Shown here in pieces: positions 2,179 to 24,559 of a stretch of 24,559 bases of DNA. Both the position numbers and the translations under genes were made by a program. Position 1 is the stretch's first letter. Each line of letters opens with the position of its first letter. This DNA is from an uncultured bacterium (GTDB taxonomy: Bacteria > Verrucomicrobiota > Verrucomicrobiia > Verrucomicrobiales > DEV007). The notes below the pieces were generated by a model. That model was given only the letters and a program-made list of their open reading frames with translations, ran no database searches and was not told where the DNA came from. Location of the stretch: assembly GCA_963977015.1 (NCBI GenBank), contig CAXBMO010000044.1, positions 1 through 24,559 of the forward strand, written 5' to 3'.

Positions 2179-2181
2179 CCC

Positions 2182-3549: not shown

Positions 3550-3643
3550 GCCCCGGTCCGCGGCGATTCGCGCGTGAAACCGCGTTCCATCGAGTCCCAA
3601 TCGTCCGGCTTTACCCGGGGTTGATTCTCGGCATGTTAGCGTC

Positions 3644-4321: not shown

Positions 4322-4542
4322 CCGCTGTCGACGATGCCCTAGACGCAAGGGCCCTGGTTTCGAGAAAATATTTGCTTCGGTGAGGGAAAATCTTGGACGG
4401 GTGAACAACTCCGGCGAAGTTTCTTTCGCGAAAAAGGGAATCGGCTGTCACCCGGGTTCTGCGCTGGCGTCAAAGAGCGGGCGCACGATTTTCTGACGAT
4501 TCCCTAACGCGACACGAACTCTCGCGCTTTCTCTTCCCTTTC

Positions 4543-5448: not shown

Positions 5449-5495
5449 ACGGGAGATGGTCGACCGTCGTCAAAGCGCAATTGGTGCGTCGATGT

Positions 5496-6707
5496 TTACC
5501 GCCCTTTCAACCGCGCGACATAGGCGCTGACGGGGCGGCCGGAAGCTTTCGCGCCCCAGGACGAGGCCCAAATCACCCGCTTGCCGTCGGGAGATGGAAC
5601 GGCGTGTGCTTCGGTCAGGTAGTCCGTCCGCGGCGCATGAAGATGGGCGATGCGTTCCACGATCTGGCTCCCGTCGAGTTTCACCGCGACCACCTCGTTC
5701 CAGAAAGGAGGCCAGTCCGGGCCGCTGTATTGATAGGTGACGTAGGCCCAGCCGGGCCGGTCCAGGTTGCGCGTCGAGGAGTGTCCGGCAAAGCCGCCTG
5801 AAGTCAGAACGGTAACCGCGCCATCCCGAAGGCGGCGCTTGATGACGCGCCCCAGATCGGGCTTCGATTTTGACACTCCCACGGCAATATCATCCCCGTT
5901 TTCGTCAATCGTGAGGTCGAAGTGGCTGGGTCGGCCATACTCGCTCCACAGCGCTCCGATCCTGTTTCCCTGCAAATCGTAGACTTGGGATTGATCACCC
6001 TGCCCTTCGCTGAATTTCCCATTTGCCACGAGGTATTTCCCAGAAGTGGAAATCGACACCCAATCCAACCTGGCTATGGCAAATTCCACGTCCGGATACT
6101 TCGCCCGCTTCTCCAAATCGTAGACAAACGCCACCTGCCGCCCCCCATTTTTTGCCGAGATCGCCACCAACCGTCCGTCGTTTGAGAGATTACCTTCCCA
6201 CGGCCCGATGCCGAATTCCGAGTATCCCGGCAAGGTTACCACGATCTTGGTTGTGTCTTCCCGAACATTCCAAAATCCGATGGTGTTGTCTTTTACGAAC
6301 ACCATGTAATCCGGACGATTCGGAGTCCAGCGCGCCTCGGAGCCAGGCCCGATGTTGCGTCCGAAAACCGGCTTGTAGCTCGCTCCGTCGAGAAAAATCA
6401 TGGAAGGAAACCCGTGATGGGTGCGAATCCACAGCAGCGACTGGTCACAATTCCAGGCCCCCTCTTTGGAGTAACCGTGACGCGCGACGGCGTTCCAGAC
6501 GCTGTCCACTCCAGGAATCGCCGCGCCGGTATCACCCGTGACACGCGTGATTTCACTGCCGAAAACGGGATCGACAACGGTTTCCAGGTAGCCGGGTTTG
6601 GGGAGCTGCGGCATCTCCAGCTGCCGGGCGTGGGTAATTCCCAAGTCCTCTGCGCAGACTTGCCCGAGGCCCAGGATGAGGAGACACCAAATCGGGAGAA
6701 AGCGCAT
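5496..6707 (-). CDS. Exported TolB/PD40-like beta-propeller protein
   Basis: Start moved to ATG at 6707 (MRFLPIWCLLILGLGQVCA, a signal peptide). Propeller-blade motifs LSNDGRLVAI, ISTSGKYLV, AHAVPSPDGKRVIWASSW. Confidence 0.7.
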   Translation of the reverse strand: MRFLPIWCLLILGLGQVCAEDLGITHARQLEMPQLPKPGYLETVVDPVFGSEITRVTGDTGAAIPGVDSVWNAVARHGYSKEGAWNCDQSLLWIRTHHGFPSMIFLDGASYKPVFGRNIGPGSEARWTPNRPDYMVFVKDNTIGFWNVREDTTKIVVTLPGYSEFGIGPWEGNLSNDGRLVAISAKNGGRQVAFVYDLEKRAKYPDVEFAIARLDWVSISTSGKYLVANGKFSEGQGDQSQVYDLQGNRIGALWSEYGRPSHFDLTIDENGDDIAVGVSKSKPDLGRVIKRRLRDGAVTVLTSGGFAGHSSTRNLDRPGWAYVTYQYSGPDWPPFWNEVVAVKLDGSQIVERIAHLHAPRTDYLTEAHAVPSPDGKRVIWASSWGAKASGRPVSAYVARLKGR

Positions 6708-6751
6708 CTGGCATTCTCTGACAGGAAACCGGAGAGTCAACCCGACCGCGA

Positions 6752-9061
6752 CTACCGCTTCGCCTCAAGCATCCGCTTCACCCGCGCCTGCTCCTTCTCG
6801 AGCGCGGGACCCGTGACCGGCATCGGCTCGAAATCGGGATCGGGCGTGACCGTTTCCCCTTCCGGAATTTTGCGCCAGCGCACATTGCGATACCAGACGT
6901 CCTGCCCGTGATCCTGCAGTTTGATCTGTCCGCCTCGGCCGGTCAGGTCCCCACCGCGAATGCCGAGCAACTCGACGTATTCGGCCCACTTCGGATCCTT
7001 GTAGTCGAAGGAAATCACCGCCTCGCCATTGAGCCAGTGCTCGATCACGCTGCCCTGGCAGATGATGCGTCCGGTGTTCCACTCGCCAACGGGACGGGTA
7101 TTGTCTTTCTTTGGCGCCATGCAAAAGAAGAGCGAAGCCGCGGCCTGACGCGCATTCTCGCCATAGGGACTGTCGATGTTGTCGAGCACCTGGTATTCGA
7201 CCTGGCCGGGCCGGTAATAGACGCCGGAGTTACACCCTTTCGACACCTTCCATTCGAAACGCAGTTCGAAATCGTCCGGCACCTTCGCGGCGGTGTAGAC
7301 GAGATCGCCCCCGCGCTCCTTGCGATAGAAGGCTCCCTCGTCGTCGATGACCCAGTTGCCCTTTTGCTCCCAGCCGTCGAAGGTCTCGCCATCGGTGAGA
7401 AAGGTGAACCCGTGTTTCTTCTCCAAGCCCATGGGGCGGCTGATCAACATCTTCGCCTCTGATTTCGGCCCGCGGAATTCCTTCGCCATGACGTCTTCTT
7501 CGGTGAAGCGCGCCATCAGGATCTCGCCGTCGGCGGCCCGATTGCGATCGTAGGAGATGACGATGGTTCCGTCCGGTGCCTGGAAGCCGTCGGGATAGGA
7601 AATGCCCTCGCGCTCGTCGAGCACGAGCCCGCCCTGCCAACTCACGCCCTCGTCGTCGGAGAGCCAGGCGCTCAGTTGAACACGACCCGAGTGCGCATCG
7701 ATCTTGTCGCCGTGTTTCACCAGCAAAAGCTTGCCGGACTGGAGTCGGCGAATGAAAAAGCGCGCCACCGGATGCTTGATTGCTGACTCGACCGGCTCAC
7801 TCCAGGTTTTTCCGCTGTCCATGGAAGTGCTTTCCATGATGCCGCGCCTGGTCCGGGCCAACATCCAGAGCGATCCGTCCTTTTTCTCGACGATCATGTG
7901 CTCGTGCCAGTCGGGATCGGGAAACTTCACCGCGCCGCGTCGTTCCCAGGTTTCGCCTTCGTCGGTGGAGACGAACACGTTGGCTCCGCGCAGCGGGTCG
8001 AGTTCGGAAAAGCAGCCCCGGAATCCGCTCATGCCGGGACGTTGATCGAGCGAGAGCGGCAGCATCCATTCGCCGGTGGAGAGAACGGTCGGCTTGTTGA
8101 GCATGACGCCGTGCCAGATGCGGGTCGGTTCGGACCAGGTCGGCTCGTCGGCATCGGGATTATCGCAACGCGTCGCCCACCCCCCCGCGCGCCCGTCGAA
8201 CATGTGCATCGATTGATCGAAAAAGAGCCAGAGCCGGCCTTTCGGATCGGTCCAAAGATTGCCAACGAGAATGCTGCGTTTTTCGCCGAGTCCTTCTTCG
8301 TGGGAATCCAGCACCACTCGCGGATCAGACCAGCTTGCGCCCTCATCGTCGCTGCTCGCGAGCACGAAAAACGCGTCGGGGCTGTCGCCGCCGCCGACCC
8401 AACAGGCCCAGAGCCGTCCGCCGGGCGTGCGCTCGATTCCGATGGTCATGCCGTAGTCGAGCTTGTTGTAGCCATACTCCGGAAGCGGCGAGGTATTCAC
8501 CACCGGCGGCACCAAGGCGTGATCGGCGATCTTCTCCATCTTCGCGATCCGTGCGGCTTGTTCTTCCGGGGTCTCCGTAATTGCGGGACGGTGTGGCGAC
8601 GCGACCGCGAGCAGCTTGATCCCCACATTGTTTCCGAGAACCGGCACGGTGGTCTTGCCGAGCGAGAGTTTCTCCCCGTGCTCCATTCGCTTGCGGTAGG
8701 CGAAGGCGCGATGCACGTCGCCCTGCGACATCTGGAACTCGGGCGTGTCGACTTTTTCAAAGCCCAGCTTGAGCAAAGCCGCGGACTGATTGGCGGCATG
8801 TGACTGGCTCAAGGTCATGACGTAGAGCTCGCCGGGCGTGGTGCACTCGATGGTGTAGCCCTCGATCCGGGTGTGGAGAAATTGCTTCCCGAGCAGAATG
8901 TCCGGCGCTTCGATCAGGGTGTAGTCTCGATTGGTGAAAAGCTTCGCGCCTTCCTCCAGGGGATGGAGGGTCGTTTCGGGTCCGGCAGCGTGACCGGAGA
9001 ATGGGAGGCTTAGGGAAAAACACGTGGCGAGGGCCAGCGAGAGGATCGGGAGGTTTTTCAT
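6752..9061 (-). CDS. Exported sialidase-like (BNR/Asp-box propeller) protein fused to C-terminal DUF1080 (3-keto-disaccharide hydrolase-like) domain
   Basis: Signal peptide, four Asp-boxes (SSDDEGASWS, STDEGETWE, SMDSGKTWS, SDDEGVSWQ) and ISYPD. C-terminal DUF1080 motifs DGETFDGW, DFELRFEWK, NSGVYY, EYQVLD, GEWN, LQDHG..VWYRN. Confidence 0.88.
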   Translation of the reverse strand: MKNLPILSLALATCFSLSLPFSGHAAGPETTLHPLEEGAKLFTNRDYTLIEAPDILLGKQFLHTRIEGYTIECTTPGELYVMTLSQSHAANQSAALLKLGFEKVDTPEFQMSQGDVHRAFAYRKRMEHGEKLSLGKTTVPVLGNNVGIKLLAVASPHRPAITETPEEQAARIAKMEKIADHALVPPVVNTSPLPEYGYNKLDYGMTIGIERTPGGRLWACWVGGGDSPDAFFVLASSDDEGASWSDPRVVLDSHEEGLGEKRSILVGNLWTDPKGRLWLFFDQSMHMFDGRAGGWATRCDNPDADEPTWSEPTRIWHGVMLNKPTVLSTGEWMLPLSLDQRPGMSGFRGCFSELDPLRGANVFVSTDEGETWERRGAVKFPDPDWHEHMIVEKKDGSLWMLARTRRGIMESTSMDSGKTWSEPVESAIKHPVARFFIRRLQSGKLLLVKHGDKIDAHSGRVQLSAWLSDDEGVSWQGGLVLDEREGISYPDGFQAPDGTIVISYDRNRAADGEILMARFTEEDVMAKEFRGPKSEAKMLISRPMGLEKKHGFTFLTDGETFDGWEQKGNWVIDDEGAFYRKERGGDLVYTAAKVPDDFELRFEWKVSKGCNSGVYYRPGQVEYQVLDNIDSPYGENARQAAASLFFCMAPKKDNTRPVGEWNTGRIICQGSVIEHWLNGEAVISFDYKDPKWAEYVELLGIRGGDLTGRGGQIKLQDHGQDVWYRNVRWRKIPEGETVTPDPDFEPMPVTGPALEKEQARVKRMLEAKR

Positions 9062-11840: not shown

Positions 11841-13886
11841 CTATTGGTCGACAATGGAGGAATTCCCGAGTTTCCCGGCGGCAAGGTAGCCGTCGCTCAG
11901 GCCAGATGGCGTGTCGCTGAACCAGAAGGAATAGAGGCTTCCCTTGCGTAACCGGAATCGAATGCGGACAGGGTCGTCCGGCAGCGAAGCGATCTCGGGG
12001 CCACCTTTCCACCGAATCTCTACGAGTGTGGAATCGGTGCTGACGGTCTCGCAATTCTCCAGAGTGAAAGGCTCGATGACCTGTCCTGACACATCAACAA
12101 GTTCGGCCTGCAGTTCTCCCTCCGGGCAGTCCACATTAACGAAGAGGTGGCTCCCTTCGAAGCTCAACGGGCGGGTGGTCAGGGTTCCCGCAGCATCTCC
12201 CGCATCCATCGACGCGAAGCCATCCCGTCGCAATCTCGCCAGTCCGATCGCGCCTCCAAAATACATGCCTTTTCTCCCGTCGGGCGCGACTCCGGAATAC
12301 CCGCAGTAGGGAAACACCAGTTCGTCCCCATCCAGAAAAAAGACGCCCCCGGTGCTGTGCAGGTAGGCGCGATCCCAGGAGCCTTCGGTTCGGGAAGCCG
12401 CGATGAATGCGCGCCGATCGGGGCGGCTCCAGTGAAACCCATCGCGACTGAATCCGAGTTTGAGCTCGGTGATTTTCGGGAATTTTCCTTCGTTGCAGAT
12501 CCGGTTGTCCGGTCCCAGGTGAATTGAGAATGCGCCAACGATCAGCGACTCATAAGCGACGGCATTCAAGCTGTAGAGCTGCGCCGAATCGCCGACTTCG
12601 GGATCGGGTTTGTCGAGCCGGTCCGCGCCGCACCAGAACACCGAGCGATCAAACGCCCCGGGGGTGAGAAATTCTGGCGCCTCCGCGTAATAGCGGGATC
12701 GACCGTGCTTCGTGCCGCGCTTGATGCTGTAGCTCCAGACCTTCCGAAACGGATTGTGGAAAAACGAGCAGTAGTCGCCCGCCTTGCCCGCCGGGACCGG
12801 AGACGACCAGATTCTTCCATCGGCGGAGGTGGCCAACCAATGCGGATCGCGGGGGTCCCGTTGCGTCAGAAACTTCAGCCGCTGCGAAGGGTCCTCGGTC
12901 TGCACATCCAGCCAGAGACAGTTGTCGCCGCCGGCGTGATCGCCCCGAGTCCGTCCGCCTTGGGGAAGCACGAGATTGCCACCGGCCGGCAAGCCCAGGT
13001 CCGGTCGTTCCCACTCCACGCCGTCGCGGCTGGTGGCGTAGGCGAGTGCCCCGTCGAGTTCACCGGCGCTGTACCACATTTTTAACAACCGCTCCGCCGG
13101 ATCGTAGAAGACGCCGCCATTGCCGAGATAACACACGCCGTTCTTGCGCTCAACTTTGGTCGTTGCGCTGAACACCGGATTGCGGGCATCCTTTTTCGCC
13201 GTGTGCCAGCTGCGCTTCAAGGTGGTTTCCTCGATCAAAAAATCATCGACAAACAACTGACGACCCACGGAGATATCGATCGTTTCTGGCGGATGTTCCA
13301 AGTAGGGAACCGGTATCGGTTCATACGAGTTCGGGTCGAGAGTACGCGGCGGCCAGACGCGGGGTAGCTGGATGTTGTTGTAGAGAATTTCCCCGTCGTT
13401 TTTCTGCCAATTCAAGGAGACGGGTTTCAGGAAAAACGCTTCGCGGGCGAGGAGAACGACCCACTTCCGCGTTTCGACGATCTCGCCGGGCTTCAGCGTC
13501 TTGCGGTAGACTCCGGCCAAGTCGGCTTCCTGGGTTCCGAACAATTGGAACGGTTCAATTTCGAGTCGTTCAAAGCCCTGGCTCACCAAAGCGTTCGCGA
13601 GCGAGTTGGTGGGGTGCTCCACCGGTGTGATCGCGTAGACGGTGAAGCTCTTGGCGCATTCCAGGAGCACTTGGGATTCAATATCCGTTCGAAGAAACGA
13701 AAACCCCGCAAGGGAGTCCGGCACTTCCAGAACTGGATAGGAACGATTCGAGAAAAGCTTGGCGCCTTCTGTAAACTCCACGACCCCGCCCGGAAGCCGG
13801 GCCGGTTCCGCACGGGTCTTGAAAGAGCCGAGCAGGGCCAGGCAGACGATCGTCCACGGGATCAGATGGGGTTTTTTGAAAGGCAT
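11841..13886 (-). CDS. Exported glycoside-hydrolase-like beta-propeller (GH32/GH43-clan-like) with N-terminal accessory domain
   Basis: Signal-like N-terminus, GRQLFVDDFLIE, Asp-box-like TSRDGVEWERP / TSADGRIWS / FSRDGFHWSRP, and C-terminal LRRDGFASM..GTLTTRPL..LFVN sandwich typical of this PVC-abundant family. Confidence 0.8.
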   Translation of the reverse strand: MPFKKPHLIPWTIVCLALLGSFKTRAEPARLPGGVVEFTEGAKLFSNRSYPVLEVPDSLAGFSFLRTDIESQVLLECAKSFTVYAITPVEHPTNSLANALVSQGFERLEIEPFQLFGTQEADLAGVYRKTLKPGEIVETRKWVVLLAREAFFLKPVSLNWQKNDGEILYNNIQLPRVWPPRTLDPNSYEPIPVPYLEHPPETIDISVGRQLFVDDFLIEETTLKRSWHTAKKDARNPVFSATTKVERKNGVCYLGNGGVFYDPAERLLKMWYSAGELDGALAYATSRDGVEWERPDLGLPAGGNLVLPQGGRTRGDHAGGDNCLWLDVQTEDPSQRLKFLTQRDPRDPHWLATSADGRIWSSPVPAGKAGDYCSFFHNPFRKVWSYSIKRGTKHGRSRYYAEAPEFLTPGAFDRSVFWCGADRLDKPDPEVGDSAQLYSLNAVAYESLIVGAFSIHLGPDNRICNEGKFPKITELKLGFSRDGFHWSRPDRRAFIAASRTEGSWDRAYLHSTGGVFFLDGDELVFPYCGYSGVAPDGRKGMYFGGAIGLARLRRDGFASMDAGDAAGTLTTRPLSFEGSHLFVNVDCPEGELQAELVDVSGQVIEPFTLENCETVSTDSTLVEIRWKGGPEIASLPDDPVRIRFRLRKGSLYSFWFSDTPSGLSDGYLAAGKLGNSSIVDQ

Positions 13887-13946
13887 TTTCTGATGATGCT
13901 GCGCAGATCATCATCAGGGTTTGCAAGTCGCGCGACGGCTTTTCAG

Positions 13947-13959
13947 TGTTACCGTAACA
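13947..13959. promoter_or_regulatory. Candidate LacI-family operator (TGTTAC-C-GTAACA)
   Basis: Perfect 6-1-6 inverted repeat in the 100-bp divergent intergenic region between the catabolic operon and the LacI gene. Confidence 0.55.
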
Positions 13960-13986
13960 TTTTGATGGCTTTCCCCTTCGATTTTC

Positions 13987-15024
13987 ATGTCTGACCCCCA
14001 TATTTCGCTTCGTGCCATCGCTGAAAAAGCGGGCGTTTCGACCATGACCGTATCTCGCGCCTTACGCAACGAGCCGCGGGTGGCCGCCGCGACCCGCGAT
14101 CACATTCTTCGAGTTGCGAGCGAACTCGGACATCGGCCGGATCCTCAGCTGTCCCGAATCATGACCCAACTCCAGGGGCGGCGTCGAAAGCAGGAACGGG
14201 AAACGATCGCCGTGATTCGCGAAGCCGAAACCGGCACCGACCTTCCCAGCCCGACCTACCAGTATGTCCCGATTGAAGCAATTCGCGACCGGGCCGAGCG
14301 GTTCGGATTTCTCGTCGAGGAATTCTGGCTTGGCATCGATGGCATGACGCCGAAGCGGATGGACCAGATTCTCCATACGAGGAACATTCGCGGGGTCATC
14401 GTCTCTCCGCAATCCGCCAGCATGCCGGTGCGGGAACTCGACTATTCTCGGCTCGCTGCCGCCACCTTCGGCTACGGACTGCTGACTCCCTCGCTTCACC
14501 GCTCTGCGGGAAACATGACCCTCGCCGTGAGTCTCGCCACGGACGAACTGGAGAAGCGCGGCTACCGCCGGATCGGTCTCGCCTTGTCCCAATGGGTCGA
14601 AGCGCGCGCCGAAAACGCCTACACCGCATCGCTCCTGCATTACCAACAGAAGATCGATCCGACGAATCGCGTGCCGCCCTTTCAGTTTCCCGGCAACGAC
14701 ATCACCAGCGGAAAAAATCGCTTCCTTGATTGGGTCGACGCGCATCAACCCGACGTGCTCCTGACCTTCGACCAGGAGATCCCCAAGTGGCTCGCGGAAC
14801 AGGGACTCCGGATTCCCCACGACATCGGTCTCGCCGCTCACGACTGGTCACCTAAAATGCCGGACTTTGCCGGAATCAACCACCGTCGCGAGCATGTCGC
14901 CGCCGCCGCCGTCGACCTCGTCGTGGCCCAGCTCCTCCAGAATGAAGGCGGCATTCCCGAGGCGCCCCGCCAGATCCTGATTCCGCCGGTGTGGGTCGAT
15001 GGTCCCAGTGTGCGGGAAAAATGA
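13987..15024 (+). CDS. LacI-family DNA-binding transcriptional regulator
   Basis: HTH ISLRAIAEKAGVSTMTVSRALRN, hinge LGHRPDP, sugar-binding domain with GYRRIGL and GLRIPHDIGL. Confidence 0.93.
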   Translation: MSDPHISLRAIAEKAGVSTMTVSRALRNEPRVAAATRDHILRVASELGHRPDPQLSRIMTQLQGRRRKQERETIAVIREAETGTDLPSPTYQYVPIEAIRDRAERFGFLVEEFWLGIDGMTPKRMDQILHTRNIRGVIVSPQSASMPVRELDYSRLAAATFGYGLLTPSLHRSAGNMTLAVSLATDELEKRGYRRIGLALSQWVEARAENAYTASLLHYQQKIDPTNRVPPFQFPGNDITSGKNRFLDWVDAHQPDVLLTFDQEIPKWLAEQGLRIPHDIGLAAHDWSPKMPDFAGINHRREHVAAAAVDLVVAQLLQNEGGIPEAPRQILIPPVWVDGPSVREK

Positions 15025-15062
15025 GCAACCCGGAGGCGGCCGACGGGTACAGGGGTTCGTGA

Positions 15063-15080
15063 CTTGGCGTTGCAGCCAAG
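15063..15080. terminator. Possible hairpin between convergent genes
   Basis: CTTGGC-gttgca-GCCAAG 6-bp stem between the lacI stop and the convergent gene's stop. U-tract is weak. Confidence 0.25.
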
Positions 15081-15109
15081 GGTAATTTTGACCTGAACCT
15101 CTTGGAACG

Positions 15110-17608
15110 TCACAGGGGCTTCGGCCCGCATTCAAAGGGAATTTCGGTCTGACCGGGCTGAATTGGCGACGCCGGCTTGCCGATGGTTCCGCTGATGGTC
15201 GGCTCGATAGCCCGTGCGGCTTCCTCAGAGAGATGATTCGAGCCTCCAATACTGCTGACATGAACCGGCAGGATCCGCTCGCCGAAAAACCTCGCGTTAC
15301 GATACCGAACATCATAGGCATCCTTCAGAAGGATCATCCGCATGTGTTCGTTCTGGTCGCTGGGATAATTCACGCCAAAACCGCCCTCCCTGCTGGATCG
15401 AAGCGGTTTCTCAGCATGGCCGAAAACACAGTCATTCACCTCAATATCATGCGGCGCGTAGTCTTTCATGTTGGTGGCGTTCAAGAGCTCGTTCCCTGGT
15501 CCTGACCGGCGTCCGCAATCCAGCGTCGTGATCACCAACGCGTTGGGCATGTCGTGAAACAGGCATCGTTCGACGAGGATGCCGATGTTCTCCGGCGCGA
15601 GCCCTCCGATCTTCCCAGTCCGAGATTCATAGTGGGATTTGAGATCAAGCCCCGAAGTTCCAAGACGACGAAAAACGCAATTCCGAATGACCGAGTCATT
15701 GAAGCCGCCCGTCGTGTCGATGCCGTCGCGAAGGTTGTCCTGAAAAACGCAGTCCTCCACCAACACCCGTCGCACCGCACCACTCGCGCCGCCCCCGGTC
15801 TTGATGCCGTCGCCCTGACACTGTTCGATCACACAACGCCGGAAGACCAACTTGTCGCACCCCGTCAGCAGCACAGACCAATGCCCACCGGCAACGTGCG
15901 TAGCGATGACCTCGATGTCGCTGCAGTCGGTGAATTTCAGGTGATGACCAATCGACCCCTTCAAGCGGCAGTTCTCGATCCGAATCCCGTTCTTTTCACG
16001 AGCCTGAATCCCAAGCCGCCTCGTGAAGTTCACATCATGCTTCTCGCCGGTAGGCCCGAGCGGAGGTGTGTTCAAATAGGTGATCGTCAGGTTCCTGACA
16101 ATGGCACCATTTCCAAGCTCCAAGAGCGGCCGATTGTCATTCGGGTCCGCTGCGTCGGTAACATCGAATCCTGCGTCCTCGGCCGCGGAAATGGTGAAGT
16201 CGTCTGGCAGACGGTGGCTTCCGGAGATTCGGAAGGTGTGTTCGAGGCGCAGTTCCTCGCCAGGATTGAGTTTGCCACTTTCCAGCAACTGTTGAAACGC
16301 CTCCGTGACGTCTTGACCCGCCTTCCAACCCAAGTCCGACGAGCGATGGAGTTTCGTGGAAACCCGAGGGTTTTCCTGCCCATGGAGAGATTCGAAGGCA
16401 CCGGTTTCTTCCAGCTTGCCGAAGACGATCCGTTCCTTGCGGCTCTGTGAATGATCGCCCTGCGTCGCGCAGACCCAGATCGCTCCGTCGTGCTCCCGGA
16501 AGGTGGGATACTGGAAGGACTTCGGAGATTCGAAGCGGTACTTGCGCTCCCAGGTCTTTCCGTCCCGGGAAACGTCGACATTGAAGACGCTGCGGTGGAC
16601 GCCTTGAATCTTCGTCGCCTCCTGCCAGCCGAGGTAGTAGAGGTCGCCGAACTTGTCGAAGGTCGGTTTCGAATTAGCCCCGTTGGGAACGAACTCGCGC
16701 TCCTTTCCGACGGTCCAAGTGACGCCGTCCACGCTCGTGGTGAAGTGGTAGTTGCCGCTGTCGTTGCGGCAGATCGCCATCCAGGTTCCGTCCGGGAGGC
16801 GGTTCACGGCGGACTCGCTGAGCTGCTGCGCCTGCGGTTCGTTGAAATGGCCTAACACTTCAACTGTCGCGAAATCTTCGTACATCCGGGCGAGGGCGTT
16901 CTGTTTTCCAACAAAGTTGTTCAGCGCCACGTAAACCTGGCCATCGAAGGTCTTGAAGGAATCGAAGAGATACATCCCGTAATCCTTGGCTGGCTTCGTG
17001 AATCCCTGGGCCACGGCGTCGGCGTGAAAATGCTGCGGTTGCATGTCAAAAACACCCGCCGCGGTCTTCAGCTTCACCCGGTGGATCGTCGGCGCGAACT
17101 CGCGCTTGCCGAGGTCGAAATCGCGAAACCACATTTGCGTCTGGCGTTTGCCCGGCTGTTCGCTGGCGAAGTAGCAGCGCAGGGTCTTGTCGTCTTTTTG
17201 GATGATGCGCGGCACGAAACACGCGCCAACCGGAAGCGTCTCGTTTTCAAAAGCCTCCTCGCTGCGGGCAACCGGGATCACGGCCTCAACGGCGAGCGTG
17301 TCGAGCCTCACGATCGACAACACGCTGTAAATCTCGGGCCATGCCGCACTTTCGCCGGAACCGAGGTCGTTCACCTCGGCAACGATGTAGGCGTGGTCGC
17401 CAAACAGCACCATCTCGGCATCGTGGGCGCCTTTGACGGCCGGCGCGGTCACGGTGACGAGTCGTTCCATCACGACATCGCCGGCCCGGACGGGATCCCA
17501 GCCCTCCGGAATTAACGACGGGACTTCAGCAAGTGCCGGTGAAGTGGACAAGAGCGTGAACAGCAAACCTGCAATGCTGCTCAGAAACGAAGGGGTTTGA
17601 ATGGTCAT
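15110..17608 (-). CDS. Exported sialidase-like propeller fused to right-handed parallel beta-helix (pectin-lyase-like) domain
   Basis: Start moved to ATG 17608 (MTIQTPSFLSSIAGLLFTLLSTSPALA, a signal peptide). Asp-boxes SVDGVTW and SRDGKTW, FQYPTF. C-terminal beta-helix repeats IENCRL, GDGIK, VEDCVFQDN, DGID, IRNCVF. Confidence 0.8.
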   Translation of the reverse strand: MTIQTPSFLSSIAGLLFTLLSTSPALAEVPSLIPEGWDPVRAGDVVMERLVTVTAPAVKGAHDAEMVLFGDHAYIVAEVNDLGSGESAAWPEIYSVLSIVRLDTLAVEAVIPVARSEEAFENETLPVGACFVPRIIQKDDKTLRCYFASEQPGKRQTQMWFRDFDLGKREFAPTIHRVKLKTAAGVFDMQPQHFHADAVAQGFTKPAKDYGMYLFDSFKTFDGQVYVALNNFVGKQNALARMYEDFATVEVLGHFNEPQAQQLSESAVNRLPDGTWMAICRNDSGNYHFTTSVDGVTWTVGKEREFVPNGANSKPTFDKFGDLYYLGWQEATKIQGVHRSVFNVDVSRDGKTWERKYRFESPKSFQYPTFREHDGAIWVCATQGDHSQSRKERIVFGKLEETGAFESLHGQENPRVSTKLHRSSDLGWKAGQDVTEAFQQLLESGKLNPGEELRLEHTFRISGSHRLPDDFTISAAEDAGFDVTDAADPNDNRPLLELGNGAIVRNLTITYLNTPPLGPTGEKHDVNFTRRLGIQAREKNGIRIENCRLKGSIGHHLKFTDCSDIEVIATHVAGGHWSVLLTGCDKLVFRRCVIEQCQGDGIKTGGGASGAVRRVLVEDCVFQDNLRDGIDTTGGFNDSVIRNCVFRRLGTSGLDLKSHYESRTGKIGGLAPENIGILVERCLFHDMPNALVITTLDCGRRSGPGNELLNATNMKDYAPHDIEVNDCVFGHAEKPLRSSREGGFGVNYPSDQNEHMRMILLKDAYDVRYRNARFFGERILPVHVSSIGGSNHLSEEAARAIEPTISGTIGKPASPIQPGQTEIPFECGPKPL

Positions 17609-17790
17609 GGATAAAGGCAATTCTCGGGAGGAGGAACCGCATTGCAAGAAAACAGGCAAGCCCGAAAAGAGCTAGGGCGGCGAATCCTTTCCTGGTGTGG
17701 AAACCGAACAATGCGACAACCCAGTAACGGAAAAGATGTTGCAATTTTTCGCCTAACCTGAAACATTCCACTCGACTTGAAGCAGAGGCA

Positions 17791-20700
17791 ATGGACAAGG
17801 CAAAGGTCATTCGTATTTTCATTTCCTCCCCCGGCGACGTGGCGGAAGAACGCGACCGTGCTCGACGGGTAATCGAGGGCTTGGGGAAGCGCTACAACGG
17901 GCGACTGAAGTTGTTGCCCATGTTATGGGAGGATCTCCCGTTGCAGGCGGACACCTCGTTTCAGTCGGGGATCGATCGGGTGATCGCAGAGGAGAGCGCG
18001 GTGGACATCGCGATCTTCATCCTTTGGTCGCGGTTGGGCTCACCGTTTCAGCCGACGCTGCTTCGCAAGAATGGAGAGCCATACCGGTCGGGAACGGAGC
18101 GGGAGTATGATTTAATGATGGAGGCGAGAAAACAGAGCGGCGGCGAGCGTCCTGCGATCCTGTTTTACACTCGGGATGACAAGGTGAGTTTCGATGAAAA
18201 GCTGAAGGGACGTCGAACCGAGGAGCAGGCTGAACTGTTGCGGCAGAAAGAACTTTCCGAGCAATTCCTGTCGGAGGAGTTTACGGATGCAGAAACGGGC
18301 CAGAACGTGAAGGCCTATCACTCGTTTCGTCATCCTCCGAGTTTTTCGCAGCGCTTGCGAGTGCATTTGCAGGAACTTCTGGATCCCATCAGCGGAATCG
18401 AAGGAGGAGATCCAGTGTGGGATGTGGAGACGAAAGGATCGCCGTTTCTCGGGTTGGAACCCTTTGATTACGAGCATGCGATGATCTTCTTTGGCCGGGA
18501 AGATGAGGAGCTGGAGATTCGGCAACACCTGAAGGAGCGCGCCCGGGAAGGTTCGGCTTTTGTCCTGATCGTCGGTCCGAGTGGCTCCGGTAAGTCGTCA
18601 CTGGCGCGAGCGGGAGTGATTCCATCGATCGTGGTGCATGAGGTCGACGAAAAAATGCCGGAGTGGATTCCCGTAATGCTCACCCCGAGCGAGCTCGGCA
18701 ACCAGATGTTTCGCAACTTGCTGGAGAAAATTTTTGCAGGTTTTCAGGTCGATTTCAATTTGGTGGAACTGGAGTCCAAAGCGCAACGGTTTCGGGAGAA
18801 TCCGGTGACGTTTTTCAGCATGGAGTTGAGTCCCCTTTTTGTGAGTCGACGAGGGACTTCGCGGCGGCTCTTGTTGTTGCTCGACCAGATTGAAGAGTTC
18901 TTCACCGGAAATGAGGAGATGGAGGCGGAGCGTGAGGTGTTGTTCCGGGCTCTACACTTCCTCTGCCAGACCGGGGATGTCTGGATTGTCGGAACGCTGA
19001 GGAGCGATTTTTATTCGACGGCACTGAGTTCGGAGGCTCTGAAGGAGCTCAAAGGCGCCAAAGGTTCGTTTGACCTGACGGTGCCGAACGACGCTTCTTT
19101 CCGCCGCATGATCGAGGAACCCGCACGCCTGGCTGGTCTCAAGTGGGGCGAGCGGAACGGGATTCCCCTAGTGAATGAGATCATGAAAGAGATCCGCGAC
19201 AAGGGCGAGTTGCTTCCCCTGGTCGGGTTCGTTCTTCGCGAATTGTTCGAGCAACGGGACGAGAACGACACCTTGCTTTACGAAAGCTATGAGAAGTTGG
19301 GCGGGGTGAGTGGCGCGCTTTCGCAGCGAGCGGAGAATGTTTTCACGAGCCTTTCCCCTTCGGCCCAACACCAGTTTTCGTTGATTATGCGACAGGTCAC
19401 AACGGTTCCGATGGACCGGAACCAGGATTTCACCCGTCGCTGGGCGGATTACGATCACTTGGCGATTACGGAGGACAACCGCGCTTTTCTGGAGGCGTTT
19501 CTAGACCGTAATTCGCGGATTTTTGTGCTGCGGGACGAAGTAGAGGATCGCCGCTCAGTCAGCATCGCGCATGAGGCACTGCTGAGGGCTTGGCCACGGT
19601 TGAGCGATTGGTTGATCGAGAACAAGACGTCACTCAAGGTTCGCGAGACGATTGCCTCTGATGCCCGGCAATGGGACCAAAATGGGCGCAAGGCAGGGTA
19701 TTTGTATCCCAAAGGAAGTAAGCTCAACGAAGCTGAGGAATTATTGGAGAACGGCTTTTTGGTCGATAACGAAGTCCAGTTTGTCGTCGCTTCGATCGCG
19801 CAGGCGCTTCGTACCGAATTTGAGCATACCCTGCGAAGTGGGCTGAATGTCGATGAGGCCTCCGGCGATCTTCGACAACGGTTCCCAGATTTGTGGGACT
19901 CCGTGATTGAGAGTTTTATTGAAAACAGTCCCGAGCAGCAACGGATTCGCGCAATTCAACAGGTGGCGGATCACCCTACCGCTCTGACTAAGAAGCTGCT
20001 TACCAAAGTTTTGGTCAGCGACGCATCATCCAAACTCCGAACGGCTTGTGCTGAGGCTCTCACCCAAATCGATAGTCCAGAAGCCTATCGCGAAGTGTGG
20101 AAGGATGGGTTTAGTTTCAACACCCTGATGGGGGCGGCAAGGCTGCTTCGCTCTTCGGAGGCGAAGTGGCAGAAAAATGCCTTTCATGAGGAACTGGAGA
20201 AGTTGAAACGATTTGTTCGATTTCGGATCTGGTGGCGCTCCTGCTACTTGCGTTTCAAGGATTCGCCTTTCCAAATTGTCCTCCAGATTCTCCCTGCGAT
20301 CACATTGGCGGCCATCGGCGCGGGCATTGCCAAACTGAATACCGCGCTCAACTACACGGCTTGCGCAGAACGTGCCGCACTTGGTCCGGGGATCTTTGCA
20401 GGAATTTTTGCAGGCGTGGTTCTCGGAGGGGCGATCGTTTTATGCATCACCGTCTACCGTCAGGTTTTCGATGCTGAGTACAGCGCCCGCTCAATGTGCC
20501 GTCCATTTGGGACGATTGTGGCCGGTTTCATTGGCGGAGTGATTGGGGGTACCGTGGTTTCCCTCTCCATTGGCCAGGTTCACTCACCCCACACCCTGGA
20601 AGGGATTGGTTGGCGGATTGGGGAAGGACCGATCTTTTGGCGTCCCTACCTCGAGAACATGCGAGGCTGGGCGTTCTTTATTACCAGTCTCGGGCTGGGC

Positions 20701-21198
20701 GTGGGGCTTGGCGCCATCGATAATTCCCTTCGCCTTTCAGATAAGATGCGTCAGTTTTATCAGGAAACTGGCGCGATGAAGAGTCTCCGGGACTTGCGCC
20801 GTGCCATGAGGCGCATCGCTTTTCTCATCCTGCCCAAAATGTGGATGCTTTTCGTCCCACTCATCGTTACAGCCTTCGGGGCGTTCGCGCTCATTATCAA
20901 TCCCATGGAGCTTCTCAAGGATGTCCCACCAACGAAGGAACTCTTTTTAGGCGGTATTCCCCAAACCTACGAACACCTCAACCTGACCGAGGACGAAGAG
21001 GTGGCCACGATCAATGCATGGAACCAATCGCCATACGGGACCCTGTTGGGAATTTATGGCGACACCTTCACCAAATTTGTCGGTGGGTTCTTCATGGTTA
21101 TGGGAATGGCAATCAGCAACCTTCTCCTTTTGAAGGGGGTCGTGATTGAGCCTCAGCGCAATTACATCCAGCGAGATGAATCAAACCAGAATCCGTAG
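17791..21198 (+). CDS. STAND NTPase: DUF4062 (TIR-like) N-terminus + nSTAND1 NTPase + HEAT-like repeats + multi-pass TM C-terminus
   Basis: N-terminal RIFISSPGDVAEER / DIAIFILWSRLGSP / SGTEREY. nSTAND1 motifs PFLGLEPF..FFGRE, Walker A GPSGSGKSS, Walker B LLLLDQIEE, TLRSDF, LPLVGFVL, YEKLGGV, AHEALLRAWPRL. HEAT-like LRTACAEALTQI; about 6-7 Gly-rich hydrophobic helices. GAGG lies upstream of the ATG. Confidence 0.88.
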   Translation: MDKAKVIRIFISSPGDVAEERDRARRVIEGLGKRYNGRLKLLPMLWEDLPLQADTSFQSGIDRVIAEESAVDIAIFILWSRLGSPFQPTLLRKNGEPYRSGTEREYDLMMEARKQSGGERPAILFYTRDDKVSFDEKLKGRRTEEQAELLRQKELSEQFLSEEFTDAETGQNVKAYHSFRHPPSFSQRLRVHLQELLDPISGIEGGDPVWDVETKGSPFLGLEPFDYEHAMIFFGREDEELEIRQHLKERAREGSAFVLIVGPSGSGKSSLARAGVIPSIVVHEVDEKMPEWIPVMLTPSELGNQMFRNLLEKIFAGFQVDFNLVELESKAQRFRENPVTFFSMELSPLFVSRRGTSRRLLLLLDQIEEFFTGNEEMEAEREVLFRALHFLCQTGDVWIVGTLRSDFYSTALSSEALKELKGAKGSFDLTVPNDASFRRMIEEPARLAGLKWGERNGIPLVNEIMKEIRDKGELLPLVGFVLRELFEQRDENDTLLYESYEKLGGVSGALSQRAENVFTSLSPSAQHQFSLIMRQVTTVPMDRNQDFTRRWADYDHLAITEDNRAFLEAFLDRNSRIFVLRDEVEDRRSVSIAHEALLRAWPRLSDWLIENKTSLKVRETIASDARQWDQNGRKAGYLYPKGSKLNEAEELLENGFLVDNEVQFVVASIAQALRTEFEHTLRSGLNVDEASGDLRQRFPDLWDSVIESFIENSPEQQRIRAIQQVADHPTALTKKLLTKVLVSDASSKLRTACAEALTQIDSPEAYREVWKDGFSFNTLMGAARLLRSSEAKWQKNAFHEELEKLKRFVRFRIWWRSCYLRFKDSPFQIVLQILPAITLAAIGAGIAKLNTALNYTACAERAALGPGIFAGIFAGVVLGGAIVLCITVYRQVFDAEYSARSMCRPFGTIVAGFIGGVIGGTVVSLSIGQVHSPHTLEGIGWRIGEGPIFWRPYLENMRGWAFFITSLGLGVGLGAIDNSLRLSDKMRQFYQETGAMKSLRDLRRAMRRIAFLILPKMWMLFVPLIVTAFGAFALIINPMELLKDVPPTKELFLGGIPQTYEHLNLTEDEEVATINAWNQSPYGTLLGIYGDTFTKFVGGFFMVMGMAISNLLLLKGVVIEPQRNYIQRDESNQNP

Positions 21199-21201
21199 AC
21201 T

Positions 21202-22506
21202 GTGGCCTTCCATTCTTCCCGATTATTCTTGTGGCCAATCCTCATTGTCGCAATCCTCCTTTCCGGTTGCGCCACCCAAAACAACCTTATCAATTCGATG
21301 ATCCCGGGCCAATTTGACCATCCTGATTCTGATTTGGGAAAGAATGCGAAAGTCCCTGAAAACGGGTTGGGAAAATTGGCATCTTCTCCCAGCCAAGCTG
21401 CCGCACCGAAACCACTCTCTCGCCAAAAGAAAAACTTCCTGCTGATTCAGGTCGATGGTGGCGGCATCAAGGGAATCACCCCGGCCATCCTGCTCGAAAA
21501 AATCGAAGGTGCCTACAACAAGCGTCCCGGACAGGAGGATACCGAGTTGCGCGACATCACGTCGGTCTTTATTGGGACCAGCACGGGCGCCGTGATTATC
21601 GGAGGGTTGGTCGCAGGTGTCCCGGCTGATCGCGTGGCTGACATTTACCGAATTGATGCCTACAACCTCATCCGCAAAGACGGTCGCCTTCCACTGCGTC
21701 CCTTGCTACAACACAACCTTCAGCGCAAAGCGTTTCAGGACTGTTGGTATCGGTCGATGGATGAGGGGGCTGACTATCCCCGAAACGTTCGCCTGGGTGA
21801 GTTAAGCCCCTCGCCTGTCGTTATCATTACATCCTACGATCTCGTCAGCAAACACACCGTCTTTTTGAGCAACTCGCCCTTATTCGACACTCCACGGAAT
21901 GCCCGCGAACTCCAGCTGATCGACGCCATGACGGCATCCGCCCTGTCTGCTCCCGTATTCTTTGGCCAAGTCCAGGCTCCCCACATTGTAACCCGCAAAA
22001 CGCTGGCCGATGGAAGCACCTATGATGTCCAAGGCGCTGCTTTTGCCGACGGAGGGCAGGGCACCCAGCAGTGCACACTACTCGTCACCGCCCACGAAGC
22101 CATCCGGATTGCGCTCGCTCATCCCGACAGCTTGGTCACGGTCATTTCGTTAGGCTGCGGAAACAATTTTGAGGAACGTTCTCCCCAAGCCATTCGCAAG
22201 CTGGGAAAGACCGACCAGTTGCTCGACTACATCACCAATTCCCAAAGCCGGGGAGAGTCAATTGATATGCAGGTGCAGGAAGCTCGCCGCCTGGAGTCTA
22301 TTGTCCCCAACCTACAGATTGCCCGGTTCGACTGGCATCACACCTCGGAGAAAGATGCGGCCTCACTCAGCGTAAAACCCCGTCAGCGGGATTTTCTCAT
22401 CAACAAAGCCGAAGAAATCGCGAAGCGCTCCGACTTCCAGACTCTCCTTGAGACGGTTGCAGACCCCAATTGCGTGGTTGAGCAATTCGACTACTCGAAA
22501 TTCTGA
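21202..22506 (+). CDS. Patatin-like phospholipase with lipoprotein signal peptide
   Basis: GTG start 3 bp after the STAND stop, lipobox LLSG|C. Oxyanion loop DGGGIKG, nucleophile GTSTG, SAPVFF, catalytic DGG, ISLGCG. Confidence 0.9.
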   Translation: MAFHSSRLFLWPILIVAILLSGCATQNNLINSMIPGQFDHPDSDLGKNAKVPENGLGKLASSPSQAAAPKPLSRQKKNFLLIQVDGGGIKGITPAILLEKIEGAYNKRPGQEDTELRDITSVFIGTSTGAVIIGGLVAGVPADRVADIYRIDAYNLIRKDGRLPLRPLLQHNLQRKAFQDCWYRSMDEGADYPRNVRLGELSPSPVVIITSYDLVSKHTVFLSNSPLFDTPRNARELQLIDAMTASALSAPVFFGQVQAPHIVTRKTLADGSTYDVQGAAFADGGQGTQQCTLLVTAHEAIRIALAHPDSLVTVISLGCGNNFEERSPQAIRKLGKTDQLLDYITNSQSRGESIDMQVQEARRLESIVPNLQIARFDWHHTSEKDAASLSVKPRQRDFLINKAEEIAKRSDFQTLLETVADPNCVVEQFDYSKF

Positions 22507-22594
22507 ACGCTGGATCCCGCAGCGAAGCGAGCCTGCAACAGAACCCGTCGACCGGGTAGAACTCTTGGCCCACAACCTGCTACAGCGGGTTTCG

Positions 22595-24133
22595 GTGAAG
22601 TCCCTTTTCCGACAACAGGATACGATTAGCGAAAACGAGTTGGAGCGCGGATTGCGCAACCTGATTCTGGACGGGGTTTGCTCCCAGAGCATGGGGGTGC
22701 TGACCGGGGGCGCGTTTTTGGTGGCGTTTGCCCTGCAAATGGGCGCGTCGAACTTTGTCGTTGGTTTCTTCGCCGCCATCATGCCGCTGTGCCAATTGTT
22801 GCAGATTCCGAGTATTCTGCTGGTCGAAAAGTTTCGGAAGCGCAAACCGCTCGTGGTTATTCCGGTGATTATTGCTCGGGCGGCCTGGTTGTTCGTGCCC
22901 TTTTTGCCATTCTGGTTTCCAGAAGCCGTCCGTGTCCCCCTGTTGGTGGCTCTTCTGTTCTGGTATTTTGCCCTGAGCGTTCCGGCTGGATGTGCCTACA
23001 ATTCCTGGATCCGCGACTTGATTCCGGAGGAGCGATTCAGCAGTTTTTTTGGAAAGCGCTGGGCGACGATCACCCTGGCCGGCGCGATTCTGACGTTGCT
23101 GACCTCATTCGCGGTCGCTCCGCTCAAGGCATGGACCGGGAGCGAGATCATGCCCTACAGCATCATTCTGGGTTTGGGCGGGGTGCTCGGGATTTTCGGT
23201 TCGGTGTTTCTGATGCGCATCCCAGAACCAAAAGCAGCCCCCAGCACGTCGCAAAGCCCGTGGGAACTGTTGGCTGAGCCGTTTCGGTCACCCGATTTCC
23301 GCAAGCTGCTCTACTTCACGGGACCGTGGAATTTCGCGCTCAACATGGCCGCAGCATTCTTTGGCGTCTACTTGCTGAAGCGATTGGAAGTCGATATCTC
23401 CACCGTGATTTTCCTGGCCGTTTCGAGCCAGTTTGTGAACGTGTTCTTCTTCAAAGTATGGGGAAACCTGGCGGATCGCTGGAATAACCGAAGTGCCCTC
23501 CTTGTTGCTGGCCAGCTCTTCTTTTTCAGTGTGCTGCTGTGGCCGTTCACGACGATGCCGGAGAAGCATGCCTACACATTGCCGCTTCTGATTTTGATCC
23601 ATGTGCTCGTCGGGATTTCCACGGCGGGAGTGAACCTTTGCGTCGGGAACCTGGCCCTGAAGAGTGCTCCAAAAGGCAAGGCAACCGCGTATCTGGCATC
23701 GAACACCGTCGTCGCCGGAATCGCGGCAACACTGGGCCCACTTCTGGGTGGTCTGTTGGGAGATTTCTTCGTTCAGAGCGAACTCAAGTTCACCCTCAGC
23801 TATACACAACTGGCTGAGGGCGCGACGATCGACGTCCCGACATTTAATCTTCGCGGTCTCGACTTTGTGTTTCTGCTTTCGGCGATCGTTGGCGCCTATG
23901 CAATGCACCGGTTGGCTTACGTCAAGGAATCGAGCCGTTCGACGGATCCGCTCGGGTTGCCGAGCTTCTTCCACGAGACCCGGAAGGCGATGGCCCACGT
24001 TTCCAACGTTGCCGGGCTGCGCAAACTCACCCACTTCCCGTTCGAAGTGATCATGAAGATCAAGCCAGCCAGGAAAGTGAAGAAGGGCGAGAAACTGACC
24101 GAGCCTCCAAACAGCAAACAGAATCGCAGCTAA
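22595..24133 (+). CDS. MFS transporter
   Basis: About 12 TM helices, DGVCSQSMGVLTGGAFLVAFAL, WGNLADRWNNR (motif A-like). Start uncertain: in-frame GTG at 22595 preferred over TTG at 22448, which overlaps patatin. Confidence 0.85.
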   Translation: MKSLFRQQDTISENELERGLRNLILDGVCSQSMGVLTGGAFLVAFALQMGASNFVVGFFAAIMPLCQLLQIPSILLVEKFRKRKPLVVIPVIIARAAWLFVPFLPFWFPEAVRVPLLVALLFWYFALSVPAGCAYNSWIRDLIPEERFSSFFGKRWATITLAGAILTLLTSFAVAPLKAWTGSEIMPYSIILGLGGVLGIFGSVFLMRIPEPKAAPSTSQSPWELLAEPFRSPDFRKLLYFTGPWNFALNMAAAFFGVYLLKRLEVDISTVIFLAVSSQFVNVFFFKVWGNLADRWNNRSALLVAGQLFFFSVLLWPFTTMPEKHAYTLPLLILIHVLVGISTAGVNLCVGNLALKSAPKGKATAYLASNTVVAGIAATLGPLLGGLLGDFFVQSELKFTLSYTQLAEGATIDVPTFNLRGLDFVFLLSAIVGAYAMHRLAYVKESSRSTDPLGLPSFFHETRKAMAHVSNVAGLRKLTHFPFEVIMKIKPARKVKKGEKLTEPPNSKQNRS

Positions 24134-24559
24134 AGTGTCAGGAAGTCCGCGACCCTGCGTTGAACAATACCAACGGCATCATCGGGAGAGCCTTCAACCA
24201 GGGCCGAAAATGGCAGCCAGTTATTGAGTTCTTGACCTTGAAACAACAAGAGGCCATCCGCTAAACAAACCGCTTTCGTGAATGCTGTCCATCCAAGCGA
24301 GGTGCTTCCTGCGGGCCCTTCTGCGACAAATTCTTCCTCAGTCAACCGATTCGAAATCTTTTCGTTTCTAAAAGGCGATTTGCGAAAGTTGCGAACTGAG
24401 TTCCATCGATCGATCGATCGCGCGGTAACAAAGATGAATGATGAGAAGAAACTTCAGAATCGTGATGGCCATGATTCCTTTGGAGATTTGGCGACGTTTT
24501 TGGAAATGACCTGATCCAGAAAGCTGGACACCTCAAAACGATAGTTCTGCTAGGATTTG
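24130..24559 (-). pseudogene. Degraded YcxB-like protein remnant
   Basis: The frame open from 24453 to 24130 reads ...IDRWNSVRNFRKSPFRNEKI..LTEEEF..GWTAFTKA..DGLLLFQ..NWLP (YcxB-like). It has an in-frame TGA at 24454-24456 and no ATG/GTG start. The likely N-terminal part (QKRRQ..MAITILKFLLII) is in another frame. Confidence 0.5.

Follow-up and report, generated by a model that had tools for sequence, protein, structure and literature searches.

The window analysed here is the entire 24,559-base contig CAXBMO010000044.1, which comes from the 6.9-Mb genome of an uncultured bacterium of the Verrucomicrobiales, an assignment borne out by genes of the PSD/PSCyt type and by the names of its relatives. 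It carries two adjacent genes on the forward strand, which we call gene A (17791–21198) and gene B (21202–22506). Gene A, supported by its open reading frame (ORF), its translation, Pfam and the family of its transmembrane (TM) domain, encodes a protein of 1135 aa that consists of a DUF4062/NIR-like head, an nSTAND1 NTPase, a HEAT linker and a C-terminal domain with six TM helices. Gene B, supported by its translation, Pfam Patatin, a PADLOC profile and a family alignment, encodes an exported patatin-like phospholipase of 434 aa that is a predicted lipoprotein. We regard it as roughly an even bet (probability about 0.5) that the two genes are functionally coupled and represent one copy of a conserved, undescribed, membrane-embedded NLR-like conflict module. 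The NLR-like STAND kind of protein is already known, and what is new here is the membrane domain and its obligatory lipase partner.

The TAG stop codon of gene A ends at 21198 and the GTG start codon of gene B lies at 21202, which leaves a gap of exactly 3 bp. Contigs from two sequencing runs of one study span this junction with zero differences, although these runs possibly represent the source sample and are then not independent. One run of a second study contains slightly diverged pieces of gene A, gene B and the downstream MFS transporter gene. None of the runs that match the window is listed as RNA. The ORFs, Pfam scores and motifs bear out the arrangement that an earlier note on this DNA had described, with its two architectures and the 3-bp gap, and the observed gene pair and its domain make-up are far beyond chance. 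Horizontal transfer, judged by composition, was rejected, as the GC content of the STAND-patatin-MFS locus (55.2%) is near the genome mean (56.0%).

The reading of a coupled module draws on the gene neighbourhoods of the STAND-TM family. A TM-only profile, built from a small alignment (A3) in place of a larger and too heterogeneous one (A2), recovered 12 loci from metagenomes, and neighbourhoods were counted at these and in one Planctomycetota genome. At nine of the 12 metagenome loci, a Pfam Patatin gene is the next downstream ORF on the same strand (E 1e-7 to 1.6e-19). L105 and L108 have a patatin of 365 aa as their third ORF (E 2.1e-23 and 8.5e-26). A patatin is thus found downstream, in a same-strand cluster, at 11 of the 11 assessable metagenome loci; L106, identical in sequence to L105, does not extend far enough for a verdict. 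The loci L109 and L114 are near-identical, and about ten distinct lineages are represented among the metagenome loci. In the Planctomycetota genome, a TIR_2-nSTAND1-TM gene is followed by patatins of both partner subtypes described below, with 4-bp overlaps. The STAND-TM gene and a type I patatin gene bear consecutive locus tags in one metagenome-assembled genome of the Verrucomicrobiota, and five further STAND-TM/type I patatin pairs have the same longest contig size in their source records, which hints at co-location but does not prove it.

The partner patatins belong to two subtypes. Type I partners (333–398 aa) contain EGGAMR and ATSAG motifs and have neither a signal peptide nor a PADLOC match. 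Type II partners (359–365 aa) begin at the catalytic motif, also lack a signal peptide, and have matches of about 1e-45 to phospholipase profiles of the CBASS type. Across seven loci, the pairwise identities of TM domains closely track those of the type I patatins (r 0.95; 5 of 5040 permutations reach this value), which shows, at the level of sequence divergence, that the two have long been co-inherited, with the proviso that shared host ancestry would give the same correlation. Judging by gene order, the STAND-patatin coupling is conserved at the family level. We read the window as a case in which a third, exported patatin fills the slot that the family always fills. Because three different patatin subtypes occupy this partner slot, the coupling probably acts through enzymatic activity. 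The earlier note had suggested a membrane-spanning module, with the lipase on the periplasmic side and the STAND anchored in the inner membrane. At other loci the partner patatins have no signal peptide, so this across-membrane layout is a local variant that is peculiar to the window and not the general plan of the module.

The C-terminal membrane domain of gene A (residues 780–1135; 20128–21195, forward strand) is delimited by hydropathy, its phmmer family and an AlphaFold2 model. Five of its six TM segments are clear by hydropathy (829–847, 868–886, 909–927, 1009–1036 and 1096–1119), and the sixth (959–982) is weaker. The AlphaFold2 model, computed from a 72-row alignment, shows long helices that match the TM segments, with a predicted local distance difference test score (pLDDT) of 92.8 and a predicted template modelling score (pTM) of 0.90. 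The predicted topology is N-in/C-in, with periplasmic loops at 848–867, 928–958 and 1037–1095; over 72 sequences, the density of lysine plus arginine is 0.15–0.29 in the predicted cytoplasmic loops versus 0.06–0.11 in the predicted periplasmic loops. Across the family, the length of the third outer loop ranges between 18 and 128 residues, and F-x-G-G and G-D motifs are kept in it. A Foldseek search with the TM-domain model returned nothing at E ≤ 0.001 (best E 0.12), and the best VIA-align Z, 9.8, is no higher than what helical bundles give as noise; neither result rules out a family. The membrane fold of the TM domain is predicted with confidence and has no clear match in the PDB.

A phmmer search with the TM domain yielded 100 matches among 1.84 billion representatives, 73 of them at E ≤ 1e-10, and most of the matched proteins are 1040–1300 aa long and match at their C-terminus. 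Given these matches, mostly C-terminal, together with the high pLDDT, the TM domain is to be taken as a real, conserved domain. A word-index protein search with it found the query alone, and the Protein Atlas gave no usable match. Source names place the family members in the Verrucomicrobiota, Planctomycetota and Acidobacteriota (Pyrinomonadaceae). nSTAND1 precedes the TM domain in all 42 members scanned. A single-sequence search of genomes with the TM domain found it in none of 100 relatives; among 400 other genomes of the same phylum there was one weak partial match (G329), in which tblastn detected no patatin. The domain occurs in one of 401 Planctomycetota genomes. A sample of 351 Acidobacteriota genomes returned no match to the TM profile and none to the type I patatin, and this empty answer carries no weight.

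The constant membrane domain is combined with variable heads. Among the 42 scanned members, 14 carry TIR_2, three DUF4062, one PNP_UDP_1 and one Trans_reg_C at the N-terminus; 18 have no Pfam match there, and five are N-terminally cut. Seventeen of the 18 members without a Pfam head could be aligned with gene A, and all 17 share an S-G-T-E-x-E motif. The match to DUF4062 is strong in one family member (P0146; 75.2 bits). In gene A, the DUF4062 (NIR) TIR-like domain spans residues ~5–200 (17803–18390, forward strand), as supported by Pfam, PADLOC, the alignment and a model, and contains the motif S-G-T-E103-R-E105 at 18088–18108. When residues 1–215 were scanned alone, DUF4062 (PF13271) matched residues 8–107 marginally, with 25.0 bits against a cut-off of 24.7; it was not listed when the whole protein was scanned with Pfam. 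The N-terminus also matches the N-terminal part of the PADLOC candidate PDC-S60 (E 1.4e-7). A PDB sequence search with it returned nothing useful.

The model of the head (pLDDT 90.5) has the plant TIR domain of RPP1 as its top Foldseek match (7xoz_A, E 8.3e-5), and the other matches among flavodoxin-like folds include the L6 TIR domain, the SPARTA TIR-APAZ and nucleoside 2-deoxyribosyltransferase. The predicted head has, on this comparison, a TIR-like (flavodoxin-like) fold. Within the S-G-T-E-x-E motif, all 26 aligned relatives have E105, and 25 of the 26 have E103. According to two preprints (10.64898/2026.05.01.722283; 10.64898/2026.09.04.749371), the DUF4062 domains of Swarozyc, PsAvs2, Vulcan, Vesta and human TEP1 are TIR-like NADases that need a conserved glutamate, and in antiphage systems they serve as effectors; the catalytic glutamates given there are E97, E98, E103 and E108, and the DUF4062 and TIR heads of the tested systems act as abortive-infection NADases. 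E103 or E105 of gene A may have the same catalytic role, a suggestion that draws on conservation within the family. The head is a predicted NADase, which would hydrolyse NAD+.

The nSTAND1 module that follows the head (residues 218–635; 18442–19695, forward strand) is unambiguous (Pfam PF20703, E 2.6e-84; 284.5 bits against a cut-off of 27.1; profile positions 1–378 of 379), and a genome search gives the same coordinates. Both the Walker A motif, GPSGSGKSS at residues 262–270 (18574–18600), and the Walker B motif, LLLLLDQIEE at residues 360–369 (18868–18897), are intact, and AAA_16 is also matched by Pfam. The HEAT-repeat linker (residues 710–766; 19918–20088, forward strand) is a weak HEAT_2 match of 20–24 bits, below the cut-off of 27.7, that recurs at the same position in 32 of the 42 family members (E ≤ 1e-3). 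The DUF4062-like, nSTAND1, HEAT and multi-TM architecture that had been proposed from the letters alone is therefore confirmed, with DUF4062 marginal and HEAT_2 below its cut-off.

Gene B is an intact patatin. Pfam Patatin (PF01734) scores 40.1 bits against a cut-off of 27.7, and Pfam and the alignment place the catalytic domain at residues 85–275 (21454–22026, forward strand). The motifs DGGGIKG (residues 85–91; 21454–21474), GTSTG with Ser127 (residues 125–129; 21574–21588) and, after the domain, DGG with Asp283 (residues 283–285; 22048–22056) all fall in invariant columns of the family alignment, in which D85, G87, G88, G91, G125, S127, G129, D283 and G284 do not vary. The N-terminus carries a signal peptide (21202–21270, forward strand), recognised from a hydrophobic segment at residues 2–26, with the lipobox LLSGC at residues 19–23. 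The lipobox consensus is [LVI][ASTVI][GAS]C. At least 90% of 29 gene B family members retain Cys23, and gene B is a predicted lipoprotein that, to judge from the lipobox, would be lipidated. The motifs, the Pfam score and the conserved cysteine agree with the earlier description of an intact patatin with a lipobox. The public annotation gives a patatin of 402 aa that begins at ATG 21298 and drops 21202–21297, the part that holds the family-conserved signal peptide and lipobox; because the lipobox cysteine is so widely kept, the long form with the GTG start is the better reading. One relative of gene B, on a 2-kb contig, is 66% identical, and about 35 others of about 430 aa are 33–47% identical; they carry the lipobox, and wherever they are named they come from Verrucomicrobiales or Verrucomicrobiota.

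Several observations weigh against a conserved, coupled conflict module. About 60 further representatives of the STAND-TM family lie outside the neighbourhood counts. In BLASTP comparisons, gene B matches no type I partner and reaches only 26–28% identity over 81–100 aa with type II partners. It is predicted to be exported, with the STAND body cytoplasmic, unlike all the relatives seen. No STAND was detected by tblastn with pieces of gene A within 10 kb of gene B family members at any of 80 genome loci, where the sole match is P-loop-sized, and a gene B paralogue in the same genome (46% identical) stands among the housekeeping genes Der, AhpC and KsgA-NUDIX. The family was not found on viral contigs or plasmids, and the locus has a GC content typical of the genome. 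PADLOC 2.0 gave only domain-level matches for the 15 ORFs of the window, without a defined defence system or a cyclase, and likewise recognised no such system in the 80 ORFs that neighbour nine related loci. Heads of the winged helix-turn-helix (wHTH) type (Trans_reg_C; P0137, L110, L107 and L112) suggest a regulatory rather than lethal output in part of the family.

The observations on gene B would be expected if its adjacency to gene A were fortuitous, gene B being an ordinary exported lipase for nutrition or envelope lipid turnover and gene A an NLR-like protein that works alone after the loss of its usual cytoplasmic patatin. Seen from the side of the gene B family, the STAND-patatin pairing is not conserved; the neighbours at nine Verrucomicrobial loci of that family are metabolic genes, including Dus, sulfatases, Metallophos, SASA and a ceramidase-like gene. 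The co-conservation of the two genes, which the earlier note had named as a test, thus holds for the STAND-TM family with a patatin and fails for gene B's own family with a STAND. The genome, however, contains only four patatin-domain genes in 6.9 Mb, none of them of type I, and for this reason a chance placement of one of them 3 bp behind this STAND on the same strand is improbable. The 11-of-11 rule in the relatives lowers the odds further, and two unrelated patatin subtypes already occupy the slot elsewhere, which provides a precedent for replacement. We consider a fortuitous adjacency unlikely.

The remaining points bear on the immune role rather than on the pairing. A system of membrane-lipid homeostasis or signalling outside immunity could have the same parts: the six TM helices would read the state of the membrane, the STAND would switch, and the output would regulate lipid remodelling by the patatin, with the NADase and TIR heads acting as metabolic brakes. 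The wHTH-headed members, the PADLOC results, the ordinary, chromosome-like composition of the locus and the lack of family members on viral contigs and plasmids are in line with such a role. Head swapping among TIR_2, DUF4062 and PNP, that is, among NAD- and nucleotide-directed domains, is in turn a pattern of conflict systems, and in tested systems, as the preprints cited above report, DUF4062 and TIR heads are abortive-infection NADases. The distribution is rare and patchy in every genome set searched (0/100, 1 weak/400, 1/401 and 0/351), and the Planctomycetota locus adjoins a TIR_2-TPR gene and a weakly SLATT_1-like gene. Classical nSTAND1 conflict genes elsewhere in the genome of the window, described below, point the same way. 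Taken together, a non-immune role in lipid homeostasis appears distinctly unlikely. The earlier assignment to the conflict-system kind fits the swapped heads; the proximity to defence islands that the note had named as a check did not materialise among the nine related loci, and the defence-island context is weak.

In the mechanism that we infer for the coupled module, with its topology, direction of signalling, NADase activity and any immune role, the six-helix domain in the inner membrane would be the constant, sensor-side part, nSTAND1 the nucleotide-driven switch and oligomeriser, and the DUF4062 (NIR) head the swappable output, here a predicted NADase. Gene B would act as the phospholipase A partner, a lipoprotein patatin having taken the place of the cytoplasmic one of the relatives. 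Because three unrelated patatin subtypes serve on either side of the membrane, the patatin and the TM domain may be coupled via membrane lipid (lysolipid or fatty-acid products, or substrate access) rather than by a fixed protein interface. Co-folding of the TM domain (A4) with mature gene B (residues 24–434, A1) gave a score of 0.00, which is informative neither way. The lipid signal would change upon an event at the membrane, for example infection or an attack on the envelope; the STAND would assemble, the NIR head would deplete NAD+ and growth would stop. The direction could also be the reverse, with the STAND gating the lipase.

A stronger version of this scheme, in which membrane-lipid products are the second messenger for STAND assembly and NAD+ depletion, would define a new receptor class with a previously unseen six-helix sensor and a dedicated phospholipase A; we put it forward tentatively, and rather doubt it. 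The corollary that the module of the window, with its lipase on the periplasmic side, would watch the envelope from outside is equally speculative. To our knowledge, bacterial proteins of the NLR-like kind detect soluble phage proteins, and do so via cytoplasmic repeat domains. If the module is what we propose, STAND/NLR immunity would be extended to the membrane by a family that combines a constant membrane domain with an obligatory phospholipase. NADase effectors would then be tied to the chemistry of lipids, and a membrane fold to which no solved structure is clearly related would be added. One gene slot that is filled repeatedly by three unrelated patatin subtypes would also be a clean natural experiment.

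No named system was found that corresponds to the pairing, in agreement with the earlier note, which had recognised none. PADLOC gave domain-level matches only, and the literature on nSTAND1, DUF4062 and patatins with STAND NTPases yielded no description of it. For gene A, the PADLOC matches comprise PDC-S60 and two weak mad P-loop matches, with no Avs model. The words "transmembrane" and "patatin" are absent from the main texts of both DUF4062 preprints and of the Evangelion preprint, whose supplements may list such architectures. Swarozyc, Vulcan, Vesta and Evangelion share with gene A a DUF4062 TIR-like domain with a conserved glutamate. Among the closest known systems are also the NIR-headed NLR-like/Avs proteins of the PsAvs2 type, which have in common with gene A the N-terminal DUF4062 with a conserved glutamate, a STAND NTPase behind it (in PsAvs2), a swappable effector and the logic of a C-terminal sensor. 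In contrast to the soluble TPR-type repeats described there, gene A has a six-helix membrane sensor, and it further differs in its constant patatin partner and its nSTAND1 clade. Gene A matches no Avs profile of PADLOC and has six TM helices in place of soluble repeats at its C-terminus, so it is not assigned to the Avs family.

The nSTAND1 counter-invader systems (eLife 10:e70394) and nSTAND1-FGE (PNAS 2024) have an NTPase of the same clade as gene A, but they use soluble C-terminal repeats or lectin-fold sensors. The word "phospholipase" is absent from the main text of the former and "patatin" from the text of the latter. With CBASS CapV, the module shares a patatin as part of an immune-type operon, and gene B and the type II partners have the same best PADLOC profile, PDLC00758 (E 3.7e-25 for gene B; 1.6e-44 and 9.5e-46 for the partners). 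Gene B nevertheless scores only 45.4 bits against the cut-off of 200 for NF041079 (CBASS_lipase), and the window contains no cyclase, so gene B is not classed as a CBASS lipase. CapV is cytoplasmic, unlike the predicted lipoprotein encoded by gene B. In fungal NLRs, a patatin-like domain is fused as N-terminal effector to a STAND NTPase in a cell-death context. The patatin is a separate gene in the module described here, and the N-terminal slot holds NIR, TIR, PNP or wHTH. A phage-defence system with a membrane-embedded NTPase resembles gene A in having its NTPase in the membrane, but that NTPase belongs to another family, lacks both a TIR/NIR head and a patatin partner, and is reported to work through Mg2+ export.

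Downstream of gene B lies a gene for an MFS transporter (22547–24133, forward strand; Pfam MFS_1), a same-strand neighbour that is probably outside the module. If GTG 22547 is its start, it begins about 40 bp past gene B, and the patatin and the transporter could be the functional pair, for lipid scavenging or lysolipid recycling, with the STAND a bystander. An MFS orthologue in a sister species (84% identical) is indeed directly preceded by a patatin-domain gene, but that patatin is a different protein with a cytoplasmic head and C-terminal TM segments. Of the local gene order, the two species share the MFS gene alone. No patatin was found upstream of four other MFS homologues in flanks of 2.6 to 10 kb, the flank of a fifth being too short to judge, and no MFS homologue was found near the 80 + 12 + 1 other patatin or STAND-TM loci. 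The transporter does not match the curated lysolipid transporter model, and a PDB sequence search with it returned nothing useful. A patatin-MFS pair with an unrelated STAND is very improbable on these data.

The patatin of the sister species (locus L124; G402:C38, 9509–11563, reverse strand) is 684 aa long, with an N-terminal patatin domain followed by several C-terminal TM segments, and its gene is flanked by an AcrB gene on one side and by the MFS orthologue on the other. It has no tblastn similarity to gene B at 1e-5, and a relative with 33–34% identity is encoded on contig C43 of the genome of the window. A second, incomplete copy of the MFS gene is also present in that genome (C14:78268–79023); it is 80% identical and covers residues 257–512 only.

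Other loci of the STAND-TM family have distinctive neighbours. In the Planctomycetota locus (L117; G1235:C39), a divergent TIR_2-TPR protein of 1026 aa (2613–5693, forward strand) stands beside the STAND-TM/patatin/patatin operon, and a 539-aa membrane protein (5768–7387, reverse strand) has a weak SLATT_1 match (E 2.2e-4, below the cut-off). The latter protein is weakly similar to an ORF of about 700 aa that separates the STAND gene from the patatin gene in L105 and L108. At L113, a gene for a RyR-domain and DUF4231 protein (5996–7462, forward strand) lies directly upstream of a DUF4062-type STAND-TM gene.

Three further nSTAND1 proteins were seen in the genome of the window. A DUF4062-like-nSTAND1-TPR paralogue of 1318 aa (L012; contig C27, 6097–10053, reverse strand) adjoins a caspase (Peptidase_C14)-DUF4384 gene (4363–5847, reverse strand), with a 2139-aa TPS-domain protein nearby, which looks like a classical conflict-system layout. 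A DUF4062-like-nSTAND1-FGE-sulfatase paralogue of 1063 aa is located on contig C47 (L013; 7082–10273, forward strand); the nSTAND1-FGE architecture has been described as an antigen sensor diversified by a diversity-generating retroelement (PNAS 2024). The third paralogue, of 1778 aa (L014; contig C9, 7593–12929, forward strand), has a C-terminal kilobase without assignment and is followed by an ORF of 1218 aa (12746–16402, forward strand) without a Pfam match. This locus is flanked by protein kinases, one of which is fused to TIR_2 (the listed spans include 16416–18983, reverse strand).

Near the end of the window, the contigs of three sequencing runs leave its sequence at 24507, each differently, and this junction may be strain-variable or repeated. 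The left part of the contig is about 4 GC points richer than the STAND-patatin-MFS part. It contains a PSD/PSCyt (DUF1592/1588/1585/1595/1587) and DUF1552 gene pair at 223–3549, and, at 6752–9061, a BNR sialidase-like and 3-keto-disaccharide hydrolase gene which, together with aldolase, kinase and SBF transporter genes, looks like a cluster for sugar use.

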